DNA from: a virus
Taxonomy: Duplodnaviria > Caudoviricetes
IMG/VR virus record: IMGVR_UViG_3300010163_000019
Span: 1-64,000 of that record
Strand: one strand, 5' to 3'
Length of the DNA stretch: 64,000 nucleotides
The notes beneath the pieces were generated by a model, which saw nothing but the letters and a program-made list of their open reading frames with translations, had not been told where the DNA came from and searched no databases. The position numbers were made by a program, and so were the translations under genes. Below are positions 13,417-55,998 of this stretch, piece after piece; the stretch's first letter is position 1, and each line of letters opens with the position of its first letter.

Positions 13417-13992
13417 ATGAAAATAGAACAAACATATATTGCAGATGATGGCAAAAGATTTAATGATAGAAATAAATGTATAAAATATGAAAGCGAATTA
13501 AGAGAGAAAGAACGAAATGAAATTCTTCAGGAAATCAAAAAATTAGATTTAGCAATTTGGAAAAAGTATTATCCAGATTATAAAGAAAAAAATGAACCAG
13601 AATTGTATCAATCACCTAAGTGGTTACAGAATGATATAGTCGCAATAATTATAGATTTCCCTGAAAGCGAAAAAGACATAATTTCTATTATTAATAGAGC
13701 AAAATATGGGAAAGAAATTATTGCAGATTATTTGAGGTTTGATGTAATAAAAAATGAAATCAAGGTAAGAATTGATTTTTTATCAGCGTTATGTTCAATA
13801 GAGTCTGGATCAGATTTATCAAGTAGTATTCAATATTCTTTATCGTCTAAAGACTTAATGGAACTTGCAAAATTACATAAAGCGAATAGGTGTAGAAGGA
13901 AAATTGAAGAATTACTAACAAGTTGTAATTTTCATTATGAGTGCGGAAAATTTATCAATAAAGAATATGAAGAGTTTTTAAAGAAACCTTAA
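13417..13992 (+). CDS. hypothetical protein
   Basis: RBS AAGGAG; N-terminal YIADDGKRF; stop inside site 13989. Confidence 0.8.
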   Translation: MKIEQTYIADDGKRFNDRNKCIKYESELREKERNEILQEIKKLDLAIWKKYYPDYKEKNEPELYQSPKWLQNDIVAIIIDFPESEKDIISIINRAKYGKEIIADYLRFDVIKNEIKVRIDFLSALCSIESGSDLSSSIQYSLSSKDLMELAKLHKANRCRRKIEELLTSCNFHYECGKFINKEYEEFLKKP

Positions 13993-14012
13993 AACTCGTA
14001 TTTTAAGGCAGG

Positions 14013-38124: not shown

Positions 38125-38268
38125 ATCTTTGAATTTTAAGAAAACATATCAGATTACAAATAAACAGATGAGAACATAAACTTAGTCCTTGCAAATGGTC
38201 CATATGTTATTGGAAATATATGAAAAATAATAAAACACGAGTTTTATGTGAAATGGAGGTAAAACCGT

Positions 38269-43305: not shown

Positions 43306-43722
43306 ATGAAAGAGATTATAGACTTTAAGATAGAAATGAGGGATTTTATATTTTCGATGGGTGATGTTGGAAAAGCTTTAAAATTGATTTCTGAAAGAAT
43401 ATTGAATACAAATTATGATGATTATTGTGAAAATGAAACATGTAAACCATATGGATGTTTAGAGTGTAAGAACTTTGGACGACAGGAGGGATATAATCAA
43501 CAAAGAGGAAGTTTTATTTTTCAACACTTTAAATGTAAAAAGCAAACAGATAGAGATATGTATAATCATGACAATACATACAACATATTTGATATAGAAT
43601 CTGATTGTAGTCCATACTTTCATTATGATAATGCAAAAGGAGAGTGCCCATATTTTGAGTGTAGTGAAAATGATTTGGTTTATATGTCCGAAAAAGAGAA
43701 AAGGAAGTGTATAGGGCGATAA
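43306..43722 (+). CDS. hypothetical Cys-rich protein
   Basis: Stop inside site 43719. Confidence 0.75.
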   Translation: MKEIIDFKIEMRDFIFSMGDVGKALKLISERILNTNYDDYCENETCKPYGCLECKNFGRQEGYNQQRGSFIFQHFKCKKQTDRDMYNHDNTYNIFDIESDCSPYFHYDNAKGECPYFECSENDLVYMSEKEKRKCIGR

Positions 43723-43756
43723 ATAATCTGTTTTGTTGTTAAAATTAAAAATAATA

Positions 43757-43803
43757 CAGAAAGGACAAAGGTGCTGCAGCCGTAAGAGAATTCTGCCTTT
43801 CTG
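43757..43803 (+). promoter_or_regulatory. double-palindrome leader element, copy 1
   Basis: CAGAAAGG..GCTGCAGC..AGAATTCT..CCTTTCTG. Confidence 0.65.
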
Positions 43804-43814
43804 GGTGAAGAAAA

Positions 43815-44571
43815 ATATTCGAGAATAGTAATTATGAATTATGGCAAGGTGATTGTCTGAAATTGATGGACAATATCCCTGACAAATCAGTAGATGCAAT
43901 TATAACTGACCTACCTTATGGGTCTACACGATGTCGTTGGGATAGCATCATTCCCTTTGAACCACTATGGAAACAGTTTAACAGAATTATAAGAGATAAT
44001 GGCGCGATAGTGTTATTTGGAACAGAACCATTTTCAAGTCATTTAAGGTTAAGCAATCTGAAAAATTATAAGTATGACTGGATATGGGATTAAAGTAAAA
44101 GGAACAGGATTTTTAAACGCTAAAAAACAACCAATGAGAAATCATGAGTTGATTAGTGTTTTTTACAAGAAACAATGTACATATAATCCTCAAAAAACAT
44201 ATGGACACAAGATGAAAAAATCTTATCGAAGTAAAGATTTGCAGACGGAAGTGTATGGTGAAATGAAAAATGACTATACATATGAGTCTACAGAGCGTTA
44301 TCCAAGAAGTATTCAAGTGTTTTCTACAGATACTCAAAATTCATCGTTGCATCCAACACAGAAACCAGTAGCTTTAATTGAATATTTGATTAAAACTTAT
44401 ACGAATGAAGGAGAAATAATACTTGATTCCTGTGCTGGTTCTGGAACGACTGGTGTTGCATGTTTAAATACCAATAGAAAATGTATTTTGATTGAAAAGG
44501 ATATAGATATATTCAATGTATCAAGAAATAGAATAGAAGGTATTATAAGTGAAAGAAAAAATAATTCCTAA
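43815..44571 (+). pseudogene. N4C/N6A DNA methyltransferase split by a +1 frameshift
   Basis: GDCL..ITDLPYG; extra T at 44090-44091 (WD/KVKG); HPTQKP..ILDSCAGSGTT; probable ATA start. Confidence 0.85.
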
Positions 44572-45103
44572 AGGTACACAATTTGGTAGATTAACGGTAT
44601 TAGAAAAAACTGATAAGAGAAATAGATCGGGAAGAAAGCTATATAAATGTAAATGCTCTTGTGGAAACATTCATTATGTGTCTAATGATTGTTTAAGAAG
44701 TGGAAGATCAAAGTCGTGTGGATGTTTAAAGATTGAAACAGTAAGATCTCAAGGTTTTAAAAACAGAGAAGAAGCAATTATAAGATCATTATATAGTCAA
44801 ACGAAAAAGAGACACAGGAATCATAATGATCCAGAACCTCCAATTTCATATAAAGATTATTACAAATTAATACATATGCCATGTTTTTATTGTGGAGAAA
44901 AATATAGTAGTGAAGCAAAAGATGATAAAACAGATACTACAGTAAAATATAATGGGTTGGATAGAATTGATAGCTCAAAAGGATATTCTCAAAATAATGT
45001 TGTAACATGTTGTAAAAAATGTAATATTGCGAAATCAACTATGACTATTATTGAATTTAAGGAATGGATAAATAAGATATATTTTAAATTTGGCACTAGT
45101 TAA
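44549..45103 (+). CDS. HNH endonuclease (homing type)
   Basis: FGRLTV..CKCSCG..SKSCGC; CFYCG..GLDRIDS.KGY..NVV.CC..CN. Confidence 0.85.
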   Translation: MKEKIIPKGTQFGRLTVLEKTDKRNRSGRKLYKCKCSCGNIHYVSNDCLRSGRSKSCGCLKIETVRSQGFKNREEAIIRSLYSQTKKRHRNHNDPEPPISYKDYYKLIHMPCFYCGEKYSSEAKDDKTDTTVKYNGLDRIDSSKGYSQNNVVTCCKKCNIAKSTMTIIEFKEWINKIYFKFGTS

Positions 45104-45281
45104 TATGTGGAATTGCTGCAATTAACACAAACAGGAAAGTAATTTGCATAGAGAATGATAAAAAGATTTTTGATATTGGTAGAAATAGGATTATGGAACA
45201 TTTAAAAGAAAGAAACAGCATTTAGACGAGGAAAAGCCAATTTCAAAGAAAAAATTTAAATGAGAAAGGTGGTGAAAAGTA

Positions 45282-45638
45282 GTGCTGCATCCAAGTAAGT
45301 TTTTTGAATGGTGTGCGATCAGAACAGGAATTGATGTGTTTGAAAATTTTGATGATAGTCTAAAGAAAATGTTGATGAATATCCATCCTAGAAATTTTAT
45401 CAAATCCAAATTAGAACTTCCGGTTTATAAAGTATCTGTAGGATACGAGACAGAAAAAGGCAATTATAAAGAAGCCGAAAAATATATGATCCTAAATAAT
45501 AGTAATGAACAAGAATATGATGATATGTGGGCTGATATGTTTGCTAAAGATTACGAGTCAGAACATAAAACATCTATTAAAAATATACAAATATTAAATG
45601 TAGAATTTGTAGGAGATGCTGTGCTACAGATTGGTTAG
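45282..45638 (+). CDS. hypothetical protein
   Basis: RBS AGGTGG, 118 aa. Confidence 0.7.
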   Translation: MLHPSKFFEWCAIRTGIDVFENFDDSLKKMLMNIHPRNFIKSKLELPVYKVSVGYETEKGNYKEAEKYMILNNSNEQEYDDMWADMFAKDYESEHKTSIKNIQILNVEFVGDAVLQIG

Positions 45639-45788
45639 TCCATCACCCAAAGTATTTATAACCTTTAGCTAATAAAGGTTGTCACAAGATTGTTTATTGT
45701 GGCACGTTGATAATAAATAATCGAAAAAGTTATGTGGTAGTGACGTAAAAAGACACCCGCGAATACGAATATAATTCGTGAATAAAGT

Positions 45789-46862
45789 ATGGCTTTACCT
45801 CACGTAAACGTAGATCAATTACGTGAGGAAAGATACATATTGGGTGAAAAGACTTTAGTAGGGCTATTAGAAAACTGTCCTAAAAATCAAATTATTGGAG
45901 ATAATCTGGTAAGAGCATGGTCGAGGATAAATAGTGATAAATATGAAAAAATAGTATGTTCAATATCTGGCGGATCAGATAGTGATGTGATGTTAGATAT
46001 TTGTATAAAATGTGACAAGGATAACAAAATTGAATATGTTTGGTTTGATACTGGCTTAGAGTATCAGGCAACAAAAGAACATTTAAAATATCTTGAAAAG
46101 AAATATGGTATAGAAATCAAATCATATAAAGCGATAAAACCAATTCCAACAACTTGTAAACAGTATGGTCAACCATTTTTATCAAAACAGGTAAGCGAAT
46201 ATATAAAAAGACTTCAAAGTCATAATTTTAAATGGGAGGATAAATCGTTTGAGGAATTATATCAAGAGTATCCAAAATGTAAGGCTGCATTGCTATGGTG
46301 GTGTAATAAAAAAGAATGTAATTCTTTTAATATCCAATGGAATAAATGGTTAAAAGAATTTTTGATAGAAAATCCTCCAACATTTTCAATTTCAAGTGTC
46401 TGTTGCAAATATGCAAAGAAAGATGTGTCTCATAAACTATTAGATGAAAATAGATATGATTTGAATATTGTCGGTGTAAGAAAAGCAGAGGGAGGTGTCA
46501 GAGCAGGATCATATAAAAGTTGCTTTGATGAAAATGGTAAAAGTAAGTGTGGATCATATGATAACTATCGTCCTTTATTCTGGTATAAAAGATCTGATAA
46601 AGAAGATTATGAAAATCATTATGGGATTGTACATAGCAGATGTTATACAGAATATGGTCTTTCGCGTACTGGTTGCGCAGGTTGTCCATACGGCAGATAC
46701 TTTGAACGAGAGTTGGAAATTATAGAGAAGTATGAACCAAAGTTATTTGTAGCCGTAAACAATATTTTTAAAGATAGCTATGAGTACACAAGAAAGTACA
46801 AAGAATTTTGTAAGGATATGGATGAGAAAAGAGAAATAAGTAAGTGTATCCGAAAAATTTGA
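45789..46862 (+). CDS. PAPS-reductase-family (PP-loop) protein
   Basis: SISGGSDS, DTGLEY, CC, VGVRKAE, RTGCAGCP. Confidence 0.85.
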   Translation: MALPHVNVDQLREERYILGEKTLVGLLENCPKNQIIGDNLVRAWSRINSDKYEKIVCSISGGSDSDVMLDICIKCDKDNKIEYVWFDTGLEYQATKEHLKYLEKKYGIEIKSYKAIKPIPTTCKQYGQPFLSKQVSEYIKRLQSHNFKWEDKSFEELYQEYPKCKAALLWWCNKKECNSFNIQWNKWLKEFLIENPPTFSISSVCCKYAKKDVSHKLLDENRYDLNIVGVRKAEGGVRAGSYKSCFDENGKSKCGSYDNYRPLFWYKRSDKEDYENHYGIVHSRCYTEYGLSRTGCAGCPYGRYFERELEIIEKYEPKLFVAVNNIFKDSYEYTRKYKEFCKDMDEKREISKCIRKI

Positions 46863-46884
46863 TTCATGATGTAAGGAGGAACTT

Positions 46885-47010
46885 ATGGATATTAGAGAAA
46901 GATTAATTCAGGCATTAGATGATTTTGGTGTTGGAAATGAAATGTATGATGAAACTAATGAGTCTTTGGCAAATTATTTAATAGAGGTAATTGCTGAATT
47001 AAGTCAGTAA
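46885..47010 (+). CDS. small hypothetical protein, 41 aa
   Basis: RBS AGGAGG. Confidence 0.55.
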   Translation: MDIRERLIQALDDFGVGNEMYDETNESLANYLIEVIAELSQ

Positions 47011-47080
47011 TTAGATAATGTTCATTATCAAAAAGTAGAAGTAACAAATAAGCATATGCAAAAATTAAAATAATAAAAAC

Positions 47081-47126
47081 AGGAGGAAATGAGGTTTCTG
47101 CGCAGAATAAATCATGATTTACTCCT
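47081..47126 (+). promoter_or_regulatory. double-palindrome leader element, copy 2
   Basis: AGGAG..TTCTGCGCAGAA..AAATCATGATTT..CTCCT. Confidence 0.7.
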
Positions 47127-47134
47127 AATAAAGA

Positions 47135-48022
47135 ATGGAATATCAAAAGAAAATTAAGTGTGAACTGTATAGGGATTCTATGCAGAATTATAAGAAATAT
47201 GCAATTCATCCTGCTCAGTTAATCATAGCAGACGTTCCTTATAACGTAGGAAATAATTTTTATGGCTCAAATCCGATGTGGTACAACGGAGGAGATAACA
47301 AAAAAGGCGAAAGTAAATTAGCAGGTAAAGCAGCTTTCAACTCTGATTTCAATTTTAATCTGTATGAGTATTTTCATTTTTGTTCCAAGATGCTTAAAAA
47401 GGATGATACAAGACCAGTTCCAAGAGGCAGAAGTAGCGATTCGCCTTGTATGATAGTTTTTTGTTCATTTGAACAGATTCAGACACTTATTAAAGCTGCT
47501 GAAAAACATGGATTTATTCATTACATACCGCTTGTATTCTGTAAGAATTATAGTCCACAGGTGCTTAAAGCAAATATGCGTGTAGTAGGTGCAACAGAAT
47601 ATGCTTTGCTTTTATATCGTGATAAGTTACCTAAATTCAGAAATGGTCTTCAGATTGATGAGAATGGTAAGAATATTCCAGGCACAGGACATATGATTTT
47701 TAACTGGTTTGATGGTGGCAATGAAGACGAATGGGGAAAAACTTATTACAACAACGGTACATATATGATGTGGGAAAAGGATAAGTCAAAGGAAGTTCCT
47801 AAAATCCATCCAGCTCAGAAGCCAGTCGCGGTTTTGAAACGTTTGATTGAGATATTTACCGACCCTGGCGATGTGGTTATTGATCCGTGTGCCGGAAGTG
47901 GAGCTACGTTAAGAGCAGCTTATGAACTTGGTAGAAGTGCTTATGGGTTTGAAATTGACCGTAATTTCTATCAGAGAGCAAAAGATGAGATGTTGAACTT
48001 TGAAAAGGATAATGAAAATTGA
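47135..48022 (+). CDS. N4C/N6A DNA methyltransferase
   Basis: IADVPY, HPAQKP, VIDPCAGSG, YGFEID. Confidence 0.9.
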   Translation: MEYQKKIKCELYRDSMQNYKKYAIHPAQLIIADVPYNVGNNFYGSNPMWYNGGDNKKGESKLAGKAAFNSDFNFNLYEYFHFCSKMLKKDDTRPVPRGRSSDSPCMIVFCSFEQIQTLIKAAEKHGFIHYIPLVFCKNYSPQVLKANMRVVGATEYALLLYRDKLPKFRNGLQIDENGKNIPGTGHMIFNWFDGGNEDEWGKTYYNNGTYMMWEKDKSKEVPKIHPAQKPVAVLKRLIEIFTDPGDVVIDPCAGSGATLRAAYELGRSAYGFEIDRNFYQRAKDEMLNFEKDNEN

Positions 48023-48810
48023 AAGAAGAATTGATACAAGATAATGGAATCTACAATTATGATGCATCTGATTTTATTCATGCACTATATGAGGATTATG
48101 GAGATGAAAGTATAGACATGTTTCTTTGTGATTTTCCCTATACATTTAAAGGAAAGAACAGAGTGACAGCAAATAAATGGGATTTACCAATAGATGATAA
48201 AGAGTTTTTTGAAATTGCTATGAAAATGCTAACACCAGAGGGGTGTATAGCATTAACAGCAGGGCAACCATTTACAAGTTATTTAGTAATGAATCATCTT
48301 GACTGTTTTAAATATGAATGGATTTGGGAGAAAGATAATGGTAGCAATTTTTCAAGTGTGAATCATCAACCATTTAAGGTTCACGAATCTGTATTAATTT
48401 TTGGGAAAGCTCCAACTACATATAATAAAGCAGAAAGATATATGAAGTATAATCCGCAATTTACAGATGGAAAGCCTTATAAGATGAAGAGAAGTGGAAT
48501 GACTGAGAATTTGGCTACTTCATCTGGTTATGAAAGAACAAATGGAGAATATGAAGGTAAACGTTATCCAAGAAGTGTTGTCAAATTTAACTTGGAAAAG
48601 GGACTTCATCCTACACAAAAACCTACAAAATTATTTGAGTATCTCATTAAAACTTATACTAACGAAGGCGGGCGGGTTGTTGATGTGTGTTGTGGTAGTG
48701 GAACAACTGCTAAAGCGGCACAGAACACAGGAAGAGTTTATATTGTAAATGATAATAATTTGGATTATGTGAGAATCTCTGAAAAACGATTAGGTGTTAT
48801 TAATGGTTGA
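48019..48810 (+). CDS. N4C/N6A DNA methyltransferase
   Basis: CDFPY, HPTQKP, VDVCCGSGTT; stop inside site 48807. Confidence 0.9.
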   Translation: MKEELIQDNGIYNYDASDFIHALYEDYGDESIDMFLCDFPYTFKGKNRVTANKWDLPIDDKEFFEIAMKMLTPEGCIALTAGQPFTSYLVMNHLDCFKYEWIWEKDNGSNFSSVNHQPFKVHESVLIFGKAPTTYNKAERYMKYNPQFTDGKPYKMKRSGMTENLATSSGYERTNGEYEGKRYPRSVVKFNLEKGLHPTQKPTKLFEYLIKTYTNEGGRVVDVCCGSGTTAKAAQNTGRVYIVNDNNLDYVRISEKRLGVING

Positions 48811-48832
48811 ATCATCGGTTTTATTTAAATAT

Positions 48833-48862
48833 AAAAATGATGCCCCATCCTGCCAGGGCATT
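48833..48862 (-). terminator. intrinsic terminator of the minus-strand cassette
   Basis: Minus strand atgccct/ggggcat stem then cattttt. Confidence 0.65.
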
Positions 48863-48867
48863 GTCTG

Positions 48868-49014
48868 TTAAAAATTGCTTTGGTATAAGAACAGTAAAAC
48901 TATTCTTATTATTAAGTAGATAATGTTTAGTAATACACATATTGCCTTCAACTCCATATAAATTTTGTTGATTCTGTTTATGGTACTCTTCACAATTAAT
49001 TTAATTTCACGCAT
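48868..49014 (-). CDS. 48-aa peptide with hydrophobic C-terminal helix (not in ORF track)
   Basis: AGGAGG RBS; MREIKLIVKSTINRINKIYMELKAICVLLNIIYLIIRIVLLFLYQSNF. Confidence 0.7.
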   Translation of the reverse strand: MREIKLIVKSTINRINKIYMELKAICVLLNIIYLIIRIVLLFLYQSNF

Positions 49015-49247
49015 ATGCACATACCTCCTCAGATTTTATTCTGGGATGGCACATATAAGAAGGTATTCCGAAATCTCAACTTGCGACTTTTCTTCTCTTA
49101 TTGAGCAGGATATGTAGACAAATTCAATAAGATACATTCCCTAAGCTGGTTTTTTGGTAAAACATTTTTATGTACAACCAATACGCAAGATACATAAATA
49201 GTTCAATGCGTGAGTCAGATTACGGATTGCCTACAACCTTAGTTAAT

Positions 49248-49276
49248 ATTATATGCATAAATTTGATTAGTGTAAA
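49248..49276 (-). promoter_or_regulatory. sigma70 promoter for the minus-strand cassette
   Basis: TTTACA(49276-49271)-17-TATAAT(49253-49248). Confidence 0.7.
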
Positions 49277-49398
49277 GAGGTTTTATAAAATTTTGCTTTT
49301 ATTGGGTGACGTGAAAGAGGTGGTTACAGATTAAAAAGGAAGAAAATTTCTTAGAAGAAAACTTCAATATAAGTTTTACTTGGTATCAAAAAATAGAA

Positions 49399-49644
49399 AT
49401 GAAAATTATGAGACTTGTTGAATTGTTTAAGGTGGCATGTCATAGACCATACATGATTAAATCAATTCTAAGTATGAGATGCCCTCATTGTGGCAGATGG
49501 TTTAGTTTCTCAACAATATCGCAACAGAGAACACAATATCAGGATAAATATTCTAATTATTTTTGTGGATGTAAATATTGTCGTGAAGAAAATGCTAATT
49601 ATTGGAATGATATGTGGAATGAGTATTATAGTAGCAGATTATAA
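49399..49644 (+). CDS. hypothetical zinc-binding protein
   Basis: CPHCG..C..C. Confidence 0.6.
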   Translation: MKIMRLVELFKVACHRPYMIKSILSMRCPHCGRWFSFSTISQQRTQYQDKYSNYFCGCKYCREENANYWNDMWNEYYSSRL

Positions 49645-49666
49645 GAGGAAAAGGAGAAAGAAATTT

Positions 49667-50218
49667 ATGAATAGGAAAACAAATTGGAAGTTACCGTTAA
49701 TCATTGGGACAGGTGTTGTTGCCGTTATCTTACTTTGTGTATTTGGAGTACAGAGTTCGCAGAATAGAGCTTTTGCTTTGGAGGAACAGGTAAACACAGC
49801 ACAGTCGGATATTAAAGTACAGGAGAAGCGAAGAGTAGATTTAGTGTACAACCTTGCTGATTGTGTAAAGCAGTATGATAAACATGAATCTGAAACTCTT
49901 ACAGCTATTGCAGAGGGGCGTGGATCAGCAGGTGATATTGAAAATGTAACAACAGCCATTACGGCAGTTTCAGAAGCATATCCTGAGTTGAAGTCAAATG
50001 AAAACTATAAGCAGCTTATGAATGAATTGGCAATGACTGAAAACCTGATTGCAGAATATAGAAGTAATTATAATAAACAGGTCAAGGAATACAACAGATA
50101 TGTTCGCAAGTTTCCAATAAGAATGTTTCTGAATATGCTTGGATATGAGGTGCAGAATTATACATATCTTGATTATGATGCCCCTTCTGACGCACCAAAA
50201 AATCTTTTTGGAGAATAA
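49667..50218 (+). CDS. lemA: LemA family protein
   Basis: N-terminal TM; RRVDL+.NL..V..Y..HE; EAYPELKSNENY..L..TEN.I..R..YN. Confidence 0.9.
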   Translation: MNRKTNWKLPLIIGTGVVAVILLCVFGVQSSQNRAFALEEQVNTAQSDIKVQEKRRVDLVYNLADCVKQYDKHESETLTAIAEGRGSAGDIENVTTAITAVSEAYPELKSNENYKQLMNELAMTENLIAEYRSNYNKQVKEYNRYVRKFPIRMFLNMLGYEVQNYTYLDYDAPSDAPKNLFGE

Positions 50219-50220
50219 AT

Positions 50221-50982
50221 ATGAGTAGATACAGTTATAGAAAACGTGGGTTTGATTTTGGCGATTTTGAAATTACCAAAAGAGAAATTTTGGCAAGTAT
50301 TTCTATTATAGCTGTAATGTTACTTATTGGTGTTCTGATTTCTAGCAAGATTTCAGAACACAAGCTAGACGCAAATGAAGTCTATAACAAAGCGGTGAAA
50401 ATAGATAATACAGATTTGTTTCAGTATGGCATGGACACAAATGTAGGTAATGCTTTTGTGTATGGTGATTTAGTAGCAGTTGATATAGTTACATATCCTG
50501 AAATTGGTGGAGAGTATATGTATATTGAAAAAGTGAAAGAGAAATATACAAAGCACACTCGTACTGTTACATATAAGGACAGTAATGGCAAGACGCATAC
50601 TAAAAAAGAAACATATTGGACATGGGACAGAGTAAGCAGTGAAGATAAGAAATGTCAGGAAATTTCTTTTTGTGGAATTACTTTTAATAGCAATAAGATT
50701 GATTTACCAAGCACAGATTATATTGATACTATCAAAGAATCAAGCCATATAAGATATAAATATTATGGTATAGGGACAAATTATAAAGGAACAATATTTA
50801 CAGATTTGAGAGATCAGACTATTTCAGATAATACTCAATTTTATAATAATAAGAATATAGAAGAAACAGTTGAATATTTAGAATCTGGCGGTGGAGTGAT
50901 TTTATTCTGGATATTTTGGATTGTACTGATTTGTGGTTGTGTGTTTGGATTTTATTATACAGAGAATAAGTGTTTGGAATAA
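50221..50982 (+). CDS. membrane protein (2 TM) downstream of LemA
   Basis: Hydrophobic segments near both ends. Confidence 0.75.
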   Translation: MSRYSYRKRGFDFGDFEITKREILASISIIAVMLLIGVLISSKISEHKLDANEVYNKAVKIDNTDLFQYGMDTNVGNAFVYGDLVAVDIVTYPEIGGEYMYIEKVKEKYTKHTRTVTYKDSNGKTHTKKETYWTWDRVSSEDKKCQEISFCGITFNSNKIDLPSTDYIDTIKESSHIRYKYYGIGTNYKGTIFTDLRDQTISDNTQFYNNKNIEETVEYLESGGGVILFWIFWIVLICGCVFGFYYTENKCLE

Positions 50983-50995
50983 AAGAAAGGGTGAT

Positions 50996-51712
50996 TTGAT
51001 TATAGAAAGAGAAGTAGTATACATAGCAGAACTTGATGCTGATGTAGATGATGTAATAGCGGCAGAGTATTTACATCAGAAAGGTGTTTTGAAAGAAGTG
51101 GTCTGTGATCCACTACCTTCTACATGGCATGGAAAGGATAGAAAAGAGCAACTTGAAAAATTAGGAATAAAAGTATCTAATAAAATACCACCTATTGCAA
51201 GATATGTGTTTGTAGGCGGAGCCTTAACTGAACTCGCAAGATATCTGATAAATCACAAGATAGAGTGTTTGGTGATGAATGGTGGTTTTGTTGGTTGTAA
51301 TATTGTGAAAAATCCTTTAGATAAGTTTAAGGATAAGCAGGCAATCAGAACATTTAATTTTAATTGTGATGTAACTGCAACCGAATCAGTTCTCAAAAAT
51401 AAGAATATAGAGAATATAATATTGATTGGTAAAAATGTATGTCATAGTGAGAAAAACACTTTCTTAGGTGTTTGGAGTGATGAAAAGAGGTTATTAGATA
51501 AATATCATTCAAAGCCTGGGAAAAGACAACATGACATGCTTGCTTGTAGAGAAGGGTTAATTATACTTGGTATGTTGGATCAGGAATCGTATTTGGATTA
51601 TAAGATAGTTCGTCCATATAATACAGGATTAAAGGGAAATATGACTGAATGGGGAAGTACATTTGGTAAATCAACTTATAGAAGTGTAATGGCGGCTGTA
51701 GGCTGGAGATAG
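50996..51712 (+). CDS. nucleoside hydrolase-like protein
   Basis: ELDADVDD (DxDxDD), GGALT, MNGG, FNFNCD. Confidence 0.6.
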   Translation: MIIEREVVYIAELDADVDDVIAAEYLHQKGVLKEVVCDPLPSTWHGKDRKEQLEKLGIKVSNKIPPIARYVFVGGALTELARYLINHKIECLVMNGGFVGCNIVKNPLDKFKDKQAIRTFNFNCDVTATESVLKNKNIENIILIGKNVCHSEKNTFLGVWSDEKRLLDKYHSKPGKRQHDMLACREGLIILGMLDQESYLDYKIVRPYNTGLKGNMTEWGSTFGKSTYRSVMAAVGWR

Positions 51713-51721
51713 AATAAAACA

Positions 51722-51769
51722 TAGGAGGTAAAGAGGTTTGTCATGACAGGAAAGTGCACTTTACTCCTA
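51722..51769 (+). promoter_or_regulatory. double-palindrome leader element, copy 3
   Basis: TAGGAG..TGTCATGACA..AAAGTGCACTTT..CTCCTA. Confidence 0.7.
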
Positions 51770-51776
51770 AACAATA

Positions 51777-52883
51777 TTGAAAGTAGCAATTATAGATGCT
51801 GATCTGATAGGTAGAGACAAGCACAGGTTTCCAAACTTAGTTTGTATGAAACTATCGGGATATTACAAAGAACTCGGTGCTGAAGTTGAATTGAAAACAG
51901 ATTATGAAGACTTAGCAGCGTATGACAAAGTATTCATTTCTAAAGTATTTACTGATACGCCGATAAACAAAGATATTTTGAAACTTCCAAATGTACAATA
52001 TGGTGGTACAGGATTCTTTTATGACAAAGCTCCGAAACTTCCTGATGAAGTGGAACATCATATGCCGGATTATCACTTGTATGATGATTGGGTAAATGAG
52101 CAAATTGACAGTGGTAAAGAGAGAAATGATTTTAAATATTATTTTGATTATTCAATTGGATACACAACGAGAAAATGTTTCAGACAGTGTGAATTTTGTG
52201 TAAACCGTAATTACAAAAAAGTGGAATTACATAGTCCGTTAAGTGAGTTTCTTGACCCATCAAGAAAGAGGATATGTTTATTAGATGACAATATCCTTGG
52301 AAGCTCTTATTGGCGAGAAATATTTGAAGAACTGCAATCTACTGGCAAACCATTTCAGTATAAACAAGGTATAGATGAGAGACTTTTAACAGATGAAAAG
52401 AGTGAAGTGCTTTTCAAAAGTAAGTACGATGGAGATTACATATTTGCATTTGATAATGTGGCAGATTATGACCTGATAGAAAAGAAATTGCAGTTGTTAA
52501 GAAGACACACAGATAAGATTCCAAAGTTTTATACATTTTGTGGTTTTGATAGAGAAGATAAGTGGGATGAGGAATTTTGGAAACAAGATTTATGGGATTT
52601 ATGGAAACGAATCGAGTTACTCATGAAATATCAGTGTTTGCCATACATAATGAGATTCAATAGATATGAAGAATCCCCATATAGAGGTACATATATTAAT
52701 CTTGCTGCGTGGTGTAATCAGCCCAGTGCTTTTAAAAAGAAGTCTTATAGAGAGTTTGTTGAGTATCAACAATCAAGACATCAAAAAGAATGTTCTGAAA
52801 TGAGATATTTGAAACAAGTTGAAAAGGATATGCCTGAGTTGGCAGAGAGATATTTTGATATGAAATTTATGGATTTTGTGTGA
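51777..52883 (+). CDS. radical SAM-like protein
   Basis: TRKCFRQCEFC (CxxxCxxC); N-terminal IIDAD..FPNL..MKLSGY. Confidence 0.75.
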   Translation: MKVAIIDADLIGRDKHRFPNLVCMKLSGYYKELGAEVELKTDYEDLAAYDKVFISKVFTDTPINKDILKLPNVQYGGTGFFYDKAPKLPDEVEHHMPDYHLYDDWVNEQIDSGKERNDFKYYFDYSIGYTTRKCFRQCEFCVNRNYKKVELHSPLSEFLDPSRKRICLLDDNILGSSYWREIFEELQSTGKPFQYKQGIDERLLTDEKSEVLFKSKYDGDYIFAFDNVADYDLIEKKLQLLRRHTDKIPKFYTFCGFDREDKWDEEFWKQDLWDLWKRIELLMKYQCLPYIMRFNRYEESPYRGTYINLAAWCNQPSAFKKKSYREFVEYQQSRHQKECSEMRYLKQVEKDMPELAERYFDMKFMDFV

Positions 52884-52903
52884 AAGGATATCGGAGGAAA
52901 AAT

Positions 52904-53383
52904 ATGAGAGTAAAACAGAATCCAAATTATGAATTAATTATAAAGACAAACAGATACACAGGAAATTTTGAAAGAGAACTGATAAGTTATACTTTGGGGA
53001 CTCTTGATAATGTACAGATGGAAATGAGTGATTTTCATGGCGAATATGAGATGGATTTGTTCTGGGAAGAAGAATTTAATTCTGAAAGAAAAGATTATTA
53101 TGACGATTACGAATTGAAAGACGAATATTTAATGGAAACATTTCAAGACGTGGATGATTGGGAACAGATGACATTCTATCATATAGCTGATGATATCAAT
53201 TCACTGGCAATTCAGTTGGTAAAACCTTTGAATGATTACTGGGAAGAAATTATTGTCAGAAGAATCAAGAAATTTTTTGATGAGCACCCATGCAGATATA
53301 GTTATACGTTGCCTGAAGATGCGAAACTGATAGATTTATACCTGATTGATTCAAATGGAGACAGAATAAAAGATTATATGTGA
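52904..53383 (+). CDS. hypothetical protein
   Basis: RBS GGAGG; TN.YTGNFERE. Confidence 0.75.
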   Translation: MRVKQNPNYELIIKTNRYTGNFERELISYTLGTLDNVQMEMSDFHGEYEMDLFWEEEFNSERKDYYDDYELKDEYLMETFQDVDDWEQMTFYHIADDINSLAIQLVKPLNDYWEEIIVRRIKKFFDEHPCRYSYTLPEDAKLIDLYLIDSNGDRIKDYM

Positions 53384-53434
53384 GGCAACAAAACCAGAGT
53401 TTCAAAGGTAGAATCGAGGTGATTTTCTAGTAAA

Positions 53435-53728
53435 ATGAGAGACATTAACGTAACAAAATACAGAAAAAATCTTGTATATTTACAAAACTTTTGTACAAAA
53501 GCAAAAAGAAGTGGATTGGGATTTTTGGAGCTAAATGGTATTTTTCGTTCCACACCAATGAATGACCGTATAACAAAAAGAAAAAATTTAACTGATTTTG
53601 AGCGTGGTTATATTCAGGGAAAACATTCAGCGTTTAATGATGTTTTGATTGAGTTGCATAAAATGATTGAGTATGCAGATATTGACTGGGAGAATACCCA
53701 TTGCAGAGAAGAAAGGTATGGTGATTAA
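53435..53728 (+). CDS. hypothetical protein
   Basis: Follows site 53388. Confidence 0.7.
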   Translation: MRDINVTKYRKNLVYLQNFCTKAKRSGLGFLELNGIFRSTPMNDRITKRKNLTDFERGYIQGKHSAFNDVLIELHKMIEYADIDWENTHCREERYGD

Positions 53729-54230
53729 TTTGCAAGAAATCTTAGCAGAGAATTTAGAAGATTTTTTTAGTAACACAAAATTGGAAGGAAAACGTATATA
53801 TAAAGGCAACGACTATGAAGTGTGGGAAGTTTCAGATGAAGATTTTCAATTAATGTGTGAAATAGATGAGGAAGAATTTGAGAGATTATGCCCTGAAGGT
53901 ATGTGGAGAAGTTCTATTGGCAGCAATATGGGAAGACCAGATGTAGAATATAAAATTAATGGCAATACAATTCTAGCGTGGGATGGCAATAGTAGAAGTG
54001 ACAATGATTCTGAATGTAAAAAATGTTTGGATAGAGAAAGTGGTGCTTGTTCTGGTACAGAAGAAGATTTTAATGAATGTTTTGGAGCAAGAGAATATTC
54101 TGGATTGTTAGAATATTTGTGTGAAGAGATTGGTGCTTCACAGCCTAAAAATGTATGCGCTTTAGCTGTTGATTTGGTAAGGTATAATAACATGACAATG
54201 GGAGAATTGTTTACAAAATATGAAGGATAA
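53718..54230 (+). CDS. hypothetical protein
   Basis: Overlapping start; EGMWRSSIGSNMG. Confidence 0.75.
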   Translation: MVINLQEILAENLEDFFSNTKLEGKRIYKGNDYEVWEVSDEDFQLMCEIDEEEFERLCPEGMWRSSIGSNMGRPDVEYKINGNTILAWDGNSRSDNDSECKKCLDRESGACSGTEEDFNECFGAREYSGLLEYLCEEIGASQPKNVCALAVDLVRYNNMTMGELFTKYEG

Positions 54231-54507
54231 GGAATACACAAGAAAAGAAAAGGTATGTCCTCTGATCAGTGATTATTGTAACGAAGAACATAAAAATTGT
54301 GATAGGTGCGTAGCTGAAGAAGATGCCTGGCAGCGTCTACGATGTTACATAGATTGCTATAATTATGATTGGACATTTGATAGGATCAAACATGATTATC
54401 AGAAGTATTATCTAAATGGTGCTTATTGTAGCCATACACTTATGGATATTATAGAGAATAATAAAAACGACTGTGAAATGTTGTTTGGATTGGAAGAATG
54501 TAAATGA
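54220..54507 (+). CDS. hypothetical protein
   Basis: Overlapping start, Cys-rich. Confidence 0.7.
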   Translation: MKDKEYTRKEKVCPLISDYCNEEHKNCDRCVAEEDAWQRLRCYIDCYNYDWTFDRIKHDYQKYYLNGAYCSHTLMDIIENNKNDCEMLFGLEECK

Positions 54508-54815
54508 AAAAATTTGAAGAGAATGGCTTTACAGCCACAGTAACAGATAAGGTGGTACGTTGGGAAATTCCGATTAGTTCCCTTATAGAAGCATTTAATA
54601 ATAGTCCAGAAAATTATAGCGATGATGGAGAACATTATATTACGGTAAAACGAGGAAAGAGACAAGAATTTGCTGAATATGTGGCACAACAATTAATGTT
54701 GGAATGTGATTCGGAAACTGGCGCAAGTCATATAGAAAATGCGATTGATAATGTGTTTTTAAATGTATTTGAAGGTGATGAAGATTTTGCACATTATCCA
54801 GAATATGATGAATGA
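54504..54815 (+). CDS. hypothetical protein
   Basis: Overlapping start. Confidence 0.75.
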   Translation: MKKFEENGFTATVTDKVVRWEIPISSLIEAFNNSPENYSDDGEHYITVKRGKRQEFAEYVAQQLMLECDSETGASHIENAIDNVFLNVFEGDEDFAHYPEYDE

Positions 54816-54897
54816 AAATAAGTCAATAAAAGGTTAATTTTATGGCACGAAAGTAGAAGAAATGTAATGTGATAGTTGCAAATATCACAAATAAAGT

Positions 54898-54945
54898 TAG
54901 GAGGAAACGAGATTTGACTGGTCGATAAATGTACATTTGCTCCTA
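54898..54945 (+). promoter_or_regulatory. double-palindrome leader element, copy 4
   Basis: TAGGAG..GACTGGTC..AAATGTACATTT..CTCCTA. Confidence 0.7.
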
Positions 54946-54953
54946 AAAGGTAA

Positions 54954-55967
54954 TTGACAGAAAATAAGCATACAACAGAAGATTTAGTGTCAATGCAAAG
55001 TAGAGATTTTTACGATAAGATTCAAACTTCTGTCGCAAAAATCTTAGAAGCATTAAGTAGATACAATAAGAAATGCTATGTTTCTTTTTCTGGAGGCAAG
55101 GATAGTACGGTTTTAGCAGATTTAGTTGCACAATGTTGTCAACTATTTAATTGCAAATTAACACTATGGTATTCTCACACTGGACTTGAATATCCAGAAG
55201 TTACACAACACGTTAAAGATTTTGCTAAGTGGTTGAAAGAGAAATATGAAATAGAAGTTAATTTGATAATTGATTATCCAAAAGATAAAAACGGAAAGAG
55301 AATTACATTCAAAGATGTAGTTACAAAATACGGATATCCGTTGATTAGCAAAGAAGTATCAAGAGATGTAGCCATTGCAAAAAATAAACCAGATGGTAAA
55401 ACGGCACAAAAATTTGTAAGAGGATCTGACTATCATAAAAAATATGGAGATACATGGTTACTTGAACGATGGGCATATCTTATAAACGCACCATTTAGAA
55501 TTTCTAATCAATGCTGCAATATCATGAAGAAAACACCAGCTCACAAATTCAACAAAGAGAGTGAAATGATACCTATTATCGGTACAATGGCTTGTGAATC
55601 TGTTTTGAGAAAGAAAGAATGGTTACGTTCAGGTTGCAATGCTTTTGACAATAAAAATCCAAGCAGTAAGCCGTTGTCATTTTGGACAGAACAAGATATT
55701 TTAAGATATCTTAAAGAGTTTAACATACCTTATCCATCTGTATATGGAGAGATATTACAAGACAGTAAAGGTAAATATTATACTTCTGGGTGTGATAGAA
55801 CAGGCTGTGTATTTTGTGGATATGGCTGTCATTTAAAAAATGACCATAGATTTGAGAGATTAAAACTGAGTCATCCTAAATTGTTTGAATATTGTATGAA
55901 ATCTGTTGAAGATGGTGGTCTTGGTATGAAGGAAGTTTTAGAGTATATAGGTGTAAAAATAGAATAA
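54954..55967 (+). CDS. PAPS-reductase-family (PP-loop) protein
   Basis: SFSGGKDS, TGLEYPE, CC..MKK, IGTMA.ES, RTGCVFC. Confidence 0.88.
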   Translation: MTENKHTTEDLVSMQSRDFYDKIQTSVAKILEALSRYNKKCYVSFSGGKDSTVLADLVAQCCQLFNCKLTLWYSHTGLEYPEVTQHVKDFAKWLKEKYEIEVNLIIDYPKDKNGKRITFKDVVTKYGYPLISKEVSRDVAIAKNKPDGKTAQKFVRGSDYHKKYGDTWLLERWAYLINAPFRISNQCCNIMKKTPAHKFNKESEMIPIIGTMACESVLRKKEWLRSGCNAFDNKNPSSKPLSFWTEQDILRYLKEFNIPYPSVYGEILQDSKGKYYTSGCDRTGCVFCGYGCHLKNDHRFERLKLSHPKLFEYCMKSVEDGGLGMKEVLEYIGVKIE

Positions 55968-55998
55968 ATTAGTATTGAAATCTTGGTTTTAAGGGGGA

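Follow-up and report, generated by a model that had tools for sequence, protein, structure and literature searches.

A conserved leader motif family upstream of phage DNA-modification genes, with a probable role in translation initiation

Leaders and genes at the locus

We describe a compact leader motif of about 48 nucleotides (nt) that precedes DNA-modification genes in a 64,000-nt stretch of the 73-kb IMG/VR virus record IMGVR_UViG_3300010163_000019. The stretch is hereafter called the window; the record has a G+C content of 31% and carries nearly all of its genes on the same strand. The leader has a conserved layout, lies on the coding strand at a characteristic distance from the start codons of genes with a common theme, and combines arms that are complementary in each sequence class with two inner segments constrained to pair through their centers. 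It probably represents a family of conserved cis-acting mRNA motifs, divided into several classes, that controls translation initiation of phage DNA-modification genes. All results come from sequence analysis. Copies of the main class were gathered from viral contigs, metagenomes, and prokaryote genomes, and a covariance model (R1) was built on main-class leaders, with the copy E2 in its training set.

All four elements described in a first-pass annotation of the window are present, and the genes assigned to them there hold: DNA methyltransferases of the N6_N4 type (by Pfam), a radical SAM protein (phrog_9298), and a PAPS reductase (phrog_424). The leaders, termed E1 to E4, and the genes that follow them are listed below, where SD denotes the Shine-Dalgarno sequence.

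43757..43803, + strand: E1, second-class leader with the same layout as E2 to E4 in other letters; 5' arm CAGAAAGG (43757-43764), linker including AAAGGT (43765-43772), palindromes GCTGCAGC (43773-43780) and AGAATTCT (43787-43794), 3' arm CCTTTCTG (43796-43803)
43809..44571, + strand: N6_N4-type DNA methyltransferase after E1; PF01555 on its second piece
47081..47128, + strand: E2, main class, 49.2 bits with R1 (training-set copy); SD-like AGGAG (47081-47085), GAGGTTT (47091-47097), self-complementary segments TTCTGCGCAGAA (47096-47107) and AAATCATGATTT (47109-47120), anti-SD-like CTCCT (47122-47126)
47135..48022, + strand: N6_N4 DNA methyltransferase after E2; ATG at 47135, 9 nt past CTCC; PF01555, E=1.6e-27
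48019-48810: second methyltransferase, overlapping the end of the preceding gene and without a leader of its own; PF01555, E=5.9e-24
51722..51770, + strand: E3, main class, 40.2 bits with R1; TAGGAG (51722-51727), GAGGTTT (51733-51739), inner segments TGTCATGACA (51739-51748) and AAAGTGCACTTT (51751-51762), CTCCTA (51764-51769)
51777..52883, + strand: radical-SAM-domain protein after E3; TTG at 51777; phrog_9298, E=5e-45
54897..54946, + strand: E4, main class, 36.6 bits with R1; TTAGGAG (54897-54903), GAGATTT (54909-54915), inner segments GACTGGTC (54916-54923, central U.G) and AAATGTACATTT (54927-54938), CTCCTAA (54940-54946)
54954..55967, + strand: PAPS-reductase / PP-loop protein after E4; TTG at 54954; PF01507, E=1.8e-15; phrog_424, E=1.3e-45

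The first-pass annotation assigned the four elements to a single design. This is correct for their layout, but only E2 (47081-47128), E3 (51723-51770), and E4 (54899-54946) align without gaps, as AGGAGG-N4-GAGRTTT-(8-nt palindrome)-N3-AAA(6-nt palindrome)TTT-N-CTCCTAA. E1 represents a second sequence class and is not detected by the main-class covariance model. Two further details required correction. The first inner segment of E4, GACTGGTC, had been read as a palindrome; it is not one by Watson-Crick pairing, but it is self-complementary with U.G and G.U at its center. Likewise, the start codon reported shortly after each element is found for E2, E3, and E4, where CTCC ends 9, 9, and 10 nt before it, but not for E1, which has no canonical start.

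The spaced pair GGAG-N30-60-CTCCTAA occurs five times in the window against 0.14 expected, a count reached in none of 100 shuffles. A generic descriptor of two palindromes inside a stem was discarded as an identifier, being unspecific in the AT-rich DNA of the window (85 matches versus 63 in shuffles). The significance of the leader therefore rests on its conserved motif and its relatives elsewhere, not on the palindromes alone.

Distribution of the leader

The leader family is real and broader than the four elements of the window, and it marks a DNA-modification module of Clostridia phages. About 150 copies of the main class, roughly 100 of them distinct, were found across viral contigs, metagenomes, and Clostridia prophages, and the leader is shared by over 100 Clostridia phages related to this one. 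In viral contigs, a strict pattern is matched at 29 loci and a core pattern (GAGGTTT, palindrome region, AAA-N6/7-TTT, N, CTCC) at no fewer than 116; metagenomes contain more main-class copies. Whole phage records carry one to four copies each. Among prokaryote genomes, true copies occur only in Clostridia (Lachnospiraceae, Anaerotignum, Robinsoniella peoriensis, Herbinix, Anaerovorax, Roseburia porci, one Clostridium species, and an Epulonipiscium metagenome-assembled genome), where they presumably belong to prophages. The sole match among deposited phage genomes is Dulem virus 39, in which the leader precedes an SNF2 helicase gene; there is thus no cultured model phage.

Rfam 15 yields no match at the gathering score in the 64-kb window. 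When cmscan was applied at E<=10 to positions 43600-55100 and to a 111-nt piece (47050-47160), only unrelated chance matches were returned. The comparison with Rfam proposed in the first-pass annotation, D12-methyl included, revealed no family that matches any of the four elements. The D12-methyl motif, reportedly from the set of Weinberg et al. 2017, is said to be a candidate cis-regulatory RNA upstream of D12 methyltransferase genes. The leader is similar in its ties to phage or metagenomic D12 adenine methyltransferase genes, but it precedes at least five methyltransferase families in addition to non-methyltransferase genes and has no Rfam 15 match. Literature searches on D12-methyl, on methyltransferase leader motifs, and on phage mRNA dimerization yielded no description of the leader.

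Position relative to genes and identity of downstream proteins

The leader is always on the coding strand. Enough downstream sequence is available for 149 distinct main-class copies, and in 142 of these an open reading frame (ORF) of at least 70 codons follows on the same strand. The distance from the end of CUCC to the start codon is exactly 9 nt in 93 of these 142 cases and 8-10 nt in 125, and the start codons are mostly ATG with a sizeable share of TTG. The interval from the 3' arm to the start codon contains no SD sequence. Where the window phage has an ordinary gene, the spacing from the end of GGAG to the start is 8 nt (range 7-10). The 3' arm of the leader therefore occupies the exact position of an SD sequence, yet in sequence and polarity it corresponds to the 16S anti-SD.

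An ORF often ends shortly before the leader: for about half of the distinct leaders, no more than 15 nt separate the upstream stop codon from the beginning of the element. TAG overlaps TAGGAGG in 25 cases, and E3 begins 10 nt past the stop codon of its upstream gene (51712). Overall, the distance from upstream stop to leader ranges from -1 to more than 140 nt. Judged by position alone, an integron attC-like cassette site was rejected, because this distance is variable and the spacing to the start codon downstream is fixed. A second rejected candidate was a leader peptide or mini-ORF from the TTG in GAGGTTTG: the stop positions match those of the other two frames, and the TTG is missing in 15 of 127 copies. 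No sigma-70 promoters were predicted directly upstream of the leader, a region with fewer promoter-like sites than its shuffles.

The downstream genes were surveyed by Pfam and PHROGs searches with 101 distinct proteins. About 90% of these are DNA methyltransferases (of at least five families), PAPS-reductase-like proteins, or radical-SAM proteins. Pfam assigns 18 proteins to C5 methylase, 12 each to D12 and N6_N4, 9 to PAPS_reduct, and 6 to N6_Mtase, with rarer assignments to Eco57I (2), MT-A70 (1), and Mom (1). In PHROGs, methyltransferase families of 25, 18, 16, and 12 members are accompanied by PAPS reductase (phrog_424, 16), radical SAM (7), and helicase (5). The radical-SAM family of the 51777..52883 gene follows the motif at seven other loci. 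Random genes behind the motif, the outcome that the first-pass annotation had named as damaging, were not encountered when downstream genes were listed across phages; their common theme is DNA modification, not one cofactor. Its proposed link of the radical-SAM and PP-loop genes to DNA modification is upheld by association, as the same leader precedes at least five methyltransferase families plus a Mom-family protein.

A 203-amino acid (aa) protein with many CxxC pairs (double zinc ribbon, PF18912; probably phrog_17284) is encoded at L005:1371-1979 and about 20 related loci. It is among the commonest non-methyltransferase products after the leader.

Complementary arms and sequence classes

From 5' to 3', the leader consists of an SD-like purine arm (part of AGAAAGGAGG), a second SD-like stretch (GAGG or AAGG), two self-complementary segments of 8-14 nt, and a 3' arm that copies the 16S anti-SD sequence (ACUCCU or CCUUUCU), with the start codon 9 +/- 1 nt further on. 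In every case, part of the extended SD forms the 5' arm, and the sequence of the 3' arm changes to match. In addition to the main class, the following arm classes were recognized.

CAGAAAGG/CCTTTCTG: E1 of the window, and twice in L380
TAAGAAAG/CTTTCTTA: L362
AGAAGG/CCTTCT: L124
AAAGGAG...GAACC/GGTTCCTTT: L371 and L346

These other classes contain two perfect palindromes of 8-14 nt each, place the start codon about 8-10 nt past the 3' arm, and precede D12, N6_N4, Eco57I-like, and PAPS-reductase genes. Relatives with the arms of E1 and other perfect palindromes stand before D12 and Eco57I-like methyltransferase genes (L380, L395, L431, L470).

Within the main class, the arms vary in step as GGAGU/ACUCC, GGAGC/GCUCC, GGAGC/GCUCU, and GGGGU/ACUCC. 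Further covarying pairs are AGGAG/CUCCU, CAGAAAGG/CCUUUCUG, UAAGAAAG/CUUUCUUA, and AGAAGG/CCUUCU. There are at least eight covarying arm pairs, all before methyltransferase or PAPS-reductase genes. Mainly because the arms change together between classes, we infer that they pair as a helix, termed P1. The outer stem proposed in the first-pass annotation, with an SD-like sequence as one strand, agrees with this, since the arms are complementary in every class. In most classes, the second SD-like stretch before the first palindrome is also able to pair with the same 3' arm; this applies to the E1, L124, and L362 types, whereas in the main class only 3-4 base pairs can form.

Self-complementary inner segments

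The inner segments were analyzed in an alignment of 75 distinct cores, membership of which required only that the outer layers be paired and ignored the inner layers. In total, 99.4% of cells pair, versus 66% in shuffled sequences (none of 500 shuffles reaches the observed value) and 33-46% with slid partners. The two adjacent nucleotides at the center form a standard pair in all 75 first segments (CG 51, GC 14, AU 8, UA 1, UG 1) and in 74 of the 75 second segments (AU 23, GC 16, CG 15, UA 11, UG 8, GU 1). This pairing goes beyond any hairpin, because neighboring nucleotides cannot pair together in one. Double substitutions located exactly at the center distinguish leaders that are closely related (TCATGA/TCCGGA, GTGCAC/GTATAC, GGTCGACC/GGTATACC), and at least 13 different palindromic 4-mers serve as cores. 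Both segments thus retain symmetry through the center while their letters change, as is expected of palindromic dimerization sites.

Where the palindromes are imperfect, G.U is kept on the mRNA strand in 13 distinct cases (for example CTGG centers, GTGCGC, TGCGCG, GGATTC, and GTCGGC) versus 2 cases of the A.C type. In the 75 cores, the partner of the invariant U before the first palindrome is A in 53, G in 18, and another base in 4. As judged from these comparisons, the tolerance of G.U speaks for base pairing of the transcript and not for a symmetry recognized in double-stranded DNA.

This bears on one of the two readings offered in the first-pass annotation, namely a DNA methylation sensor. 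At the DNA level, the palindromes would be sites of restriction, modification, or other dimeric DNA-binding proteins, and perfect dyad symmetry through the center is what dimeric DNA enzymes read. The cores are also typical type II sites, the downstream genes modify DNA, and CTGCAG, for which 9.1 copies would be expected in the 73-kb genome, is present in a single copy, within E1. There are self-regulated methyltransferase genes with a cognate site or operator in the promoter (CfrBI, SsoII, EcoRII, LlaDII), which resemble the leader in having palindromes directly upstream of a DNA methyltransferase gene. However, the leader palindromes do not follow the methyltransferase: identical leaders stand before unrelated N6_N4 and D12 enzymes, and either TCATGA or TCCGGA is found before methyltransferases that are 95-98.6% identical. 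Up to eight specificities would be required in a single phage. Transition variants that destroy the site but keep G.U are common (13 versus 2, with CTGG for CCGG widespread), and the palindromes always lie between the SD and anti-SD arms, inside a transcribed helix, at a fixed distance from the start codon. Nor are the cores reserved for leaders, given 210 occurrences of CATG, 307 of TGCA, 115 of GTAC, and 25 of GCGC in the genome. A DNA-level element is therefore very unlikely, and the methylation sensor is not supported, as the palindromes do not track enzyme specificity. A separate proposal, that rare restriction sites are reserved for leaders, was rejected: CTGCAG alone is rare, and the 4-mer cores are frequent across the genome.

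Folding energies were computed for 108 leaders with nearest-neighbor parameters. Isolated hairpins have a mean dG of -0.2 (first) and 0.0 kcal/mol (second), versus -16.5 and -12.0 kcal/mol for the respective self-duplexes. In the monomer ensemble, the probability (P) of P1 is 0.98, that of the first hairpin 0.31, and that of the second 0.01, and a nested two-strand fold lies 15.9 kcal/mol below two monomers. The informative point in these models is that the pairs preserved by evolution differ from those predicted to form in one molecule. The other reading of the first-pass annotation, an RNA three-way switch controlling translation, is thus retained in part. An RNA element that controls translation agrees with the coding strand, the spacing of 9 +/- 1 nt, the covariation of the arms, and the tolerance of G.U. 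Its two hairpins do not, as the palindromes pair through their centers and single-molecule hairpins are predicted not to form.

A monomeric three-way junction could be maintained if a phage or host protein, or a ligand such as S-adenosylmethionine (SAM) or S-adenosylhomocysteine (SAH), bound it and stabilized the palindromes as hairpins; full symmetry would then be a by-product, for example of recombination between leaders. We consider this unlikely. The junction letters of the main class (GAGGUUU, AAA/UUU, ACUCC) are invariant and most downstream enzymes use SAM, but these letters are found only in the main class and not in other classes with the same layout and genes, and the downstream genes include those for Mom and PAPS-reductase proteins, which are not SAM enzymes. 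About 10% of second segments are of odd length (CGCAGCG, CACAGTG) and would suit triloop hairpins; against this, the central adjacent nucleotides covary, which no hairpin needs, and the hairpins are predicted to be unstable (P=0.01 for the second). In addition, a zinc-ribbon family is itself encoded behind the motif, recalling the Com zinc finger on the mom mRNA of phage Mu, but this protein is absent from the window phage.

Alternatively, the leader could be a recombination module, that is, a homology block or structured hotspot that swaps DNA-modification cassettes and has no regulatory role of its own. Some leaders are identical together with their upstream sequence and are then followed by different genes, the switch falling right after CTCCTAA (L012 versus L026), and the first and second palindromes assort independently among leaders. 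Compensatory changes, G.U tolerance, SD and anti-SD arms, and 9-nt spacing are nevertheless not needed by a homology block, and several classes have a common layout without common sequence. Swapping is also compatible with a regulatory leader that doubles as a shared boundary. A module devoid of regulation is therefore extremely improbable. In L012 versus L026 and in L001 versus L009, the same leader and upstream sequence precede a D12 methyltransferase in one phage and an N6_N4 methyltransferase in the other. Divergence right after CTCCTAA implies that the 3' end of the leader is a recombination boundary for methyltransferase cassettes.

Comparison with known systems

The leader probably belongs with mRNA leaders that occlude the ribosome-binding site (RBS), although its layout is unusual, its symmetry unexplained, and its sequence absent from Rfam. 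As in leaders that sequester the SD, its spacing to the start codon is fixed, it is on the coding strand, and its SD-like sequence is predicted to pair with a covarying complement.

In phage Mu, studied by Hattman, Kahmann and co-workers, the mom mRNA reportedly has a translation-inhibition stem-loop that is opened by the Com zinc-finger protein. The DNA-modification product of mom is harmful in excess, and a simple hairpin covers both the SD and the start codon. The two systems are alike in that a phage DNA-modification gene has an mRNA structure that hides its RBS, as inferred for the leader, and one downstream protein belongs to the Mom family. They differ in that the leader has its SD-like strand about 40 nt upstream, an anti-SD-like strand at the SD position, and two self-complementary inserts. 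There is no sequence similarity between them, and no Com-like activator has been identified for the leader. The 203-aa double zinc-ribbon protein described above was considered as a Com-like regulator and rejected, as it has no homologue in the window phage genome.

The SAM-III (SMK box) and guanidine-II (mini-ykkC) elements likewise are short elements of the 5' untranslated region (UTR) that act at the ribosome-binding site through SD/anti-SD pairing. In guanidine-II, which has a conserved ACGR, the loops of two tiny stem-loops base-pair with each other via a palindromic CG (PMC7357161). In contrast, the leader has no conserved loop letters or ACGR tetraloop, and any palindromic core occurs. 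Moreover, no ligand pocket common to the leader classes is apparent, and the Rfam models of these elements do not match.

Palindromic dimerization sites are found in other RNAs, including the HIV-1 DIS (GCGCGC or GUGCAC), the oskar 3' UTR, and the Hatchet ribozyme (PMC7357161). The recently solved ROOL and GOLLD structures are of homo-oligomeric bacterial RNAs (bioRxiv 10.1101/2024.12.08.627333). The leader resembles DIS-like sites in that its letters vary between relatives while self-complementarity is kept, and in that this pairing is available only between two copies. Those sites differ in belonging to genome-packaging, localization, or large non-coding RNAs, and the leader dimer is a prediction only. 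We know of no precedent for a 48-nt bacterial or phage mRNA leader with two palindromic dimerization sites at the start codon.

Proposed mechanism and significance

In the favored interpretation, a leader that controls translation initiation, P1 would hide the only strong SD and would sit where the SD:anti-SD helix of an initiating ribosome would otherwise lie. Free initiation would thereby be blocked or tightly limited. Expression would need an event that remodels P1, such as a ribosome terminating upstream, invasion by the 16S tail, or a phage factor. As leaders are often near upstream stops, a terminating ribosome would melt P1, which makes coupling to upstream translation a plausible trigger; it would not be the sole one, because many leaders, E2 included, stand alone. 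The rationale would be tight dosing and timing of enzymes that are needed in small amounts and harmful when over-produced. The arm helix might additionally imitate the SD:anti-SD helix, being supplied in cis and located at canonical spacing from the start codon.

For the inner segments, the mechanism would have them pair as intermolecular duplexes between two leader copies. Based on symmetry and modeled energies, we propose only tentatively that such pairing occurs and that the state of the leader is then sensitive to transcript concentration. It is possible, though doubtful, that the leader acts as an RNA homodimer, formed with the same leader or with one sharing its palindrome, in which P1 responds to transcript concentration as a dosage sensor. 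By reasoning alone, a symmetric dimer with the duplexes side by side and P1 closed within each strand is topologically possible.

Several points weigh against these interpretations. The P1 core of the main class, GGAG/CUCC, is invariant, and it extends outward only modestly further than in shuffled sequences (1.22 versus 1.01 pairs); as far as the alignments indicate, the case for P1 comes mainly from comparison between classes and is weak within the main class. When P1 is open, the SD is left about 50 nt from the start codon, and a canonical "on" state is not derivable. A triloop hairpin accommodates the odd-length second segments no less well than does a duplex with a mismatch at its center. 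A favorable cofold energy is trivial for any palindrome, so the dimer is argued only from symmetry and nearest-neighbor energies. Leaders within one genome can share a palindrome. Finally, novelty is uncertain: the leader may already figure, uncharacterized, in a 2023 catalogue of 10,006 candidate structured RNAs from IMG/VR, which mentions four candidates upstream of N6-adenine methyltransferase genes (PMC10690425). With respect to the shared palindromes, orthogonality within a genome was considered and rejected, as there is no sign that it is enforced.

If the dimer interpretation is true, the leader would be categorically new: an mRNA leader regulated by symmetric dimerization, the first from any bacterium or phage. 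Covariation through the center, together with hairpins predicted to be absent, makes it one of the clearer comparative cases for a naturally dimerizing small RNA. The element is compact and available in many natural copies, and its layout raises the question of how translation proceeds in SD-dependent Firmicutes. It also provides a sequence tag for a DNA-modification or anti-restriction module in a large group of gut and rumen Clostridia phages. By association, PAPS-reductase-like, radical-SAM, SNF2, and unknown proteins are connected with DNA modification and become candidates for new DNA hypermodification chemistry.

Additional features of the genome

The methyltransferase frame after E1 opens at 43809 without ATG, GTG, or TTG. 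E1-type relatives have ATG 8 nt past the 3' arm, where the window has ATA (43815). The frame is also broken at about 44088-44093 (GAT TAA A), which separates the pieces 43809-44093 and 44074-44571. From its sequence, the gene is apparently damaged; possible causes are pseudogene formation, recoding, and an error in the assembly. Directly after it comes an HNH endonuclease gene (phrog_1035/374; 44549-45103).

A second PAPS-reductase paralogue (phrog_424) is located at 45789-46862 and has no leader of the main or related classes. Upstream, at a distance of about 15 nt from its ATG, is an inverted repeat of another kind, ACGAAT-ATA-ATTCGT. Between the methyltransferase pair and a structural-protein-like gene lies an 81-aa ORF (49399-49644) with two CxxC pairs, zinc-ribbon-like in appearance, to which the protein families searched gave no annotation.

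Palindromes of at least 8 nt are depleted in the window (231 versus about 350 in Markov shuffles). In the 73-kb record, GGCC is strongly avoided (5 occurrences versus 38.6 expected), and CTAG, CCGG, and GATC are also under-represented. This pattern suggests restriction avoidance despite the phage's own methyltransferases.

A dyad site, TRAAW-N6-TTTYA, is distinct from the leader palindromes in that its arms are conserved and its center is non-palindromic. Between positions 460-59502 of the window, it occurs 41 times (both strands counted) against 13.7 expected, and none of 100 shuffles reaches this count. Examples are as follows.

13990-14005, 38231-38246, 48808-48823, 54827-54842, 55976-55991: TRAAW-N6-TTTYA sites

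In form, the site is like an operator bound by a dimeric protein. One of its copies is found about 55 nt upstream of E4.

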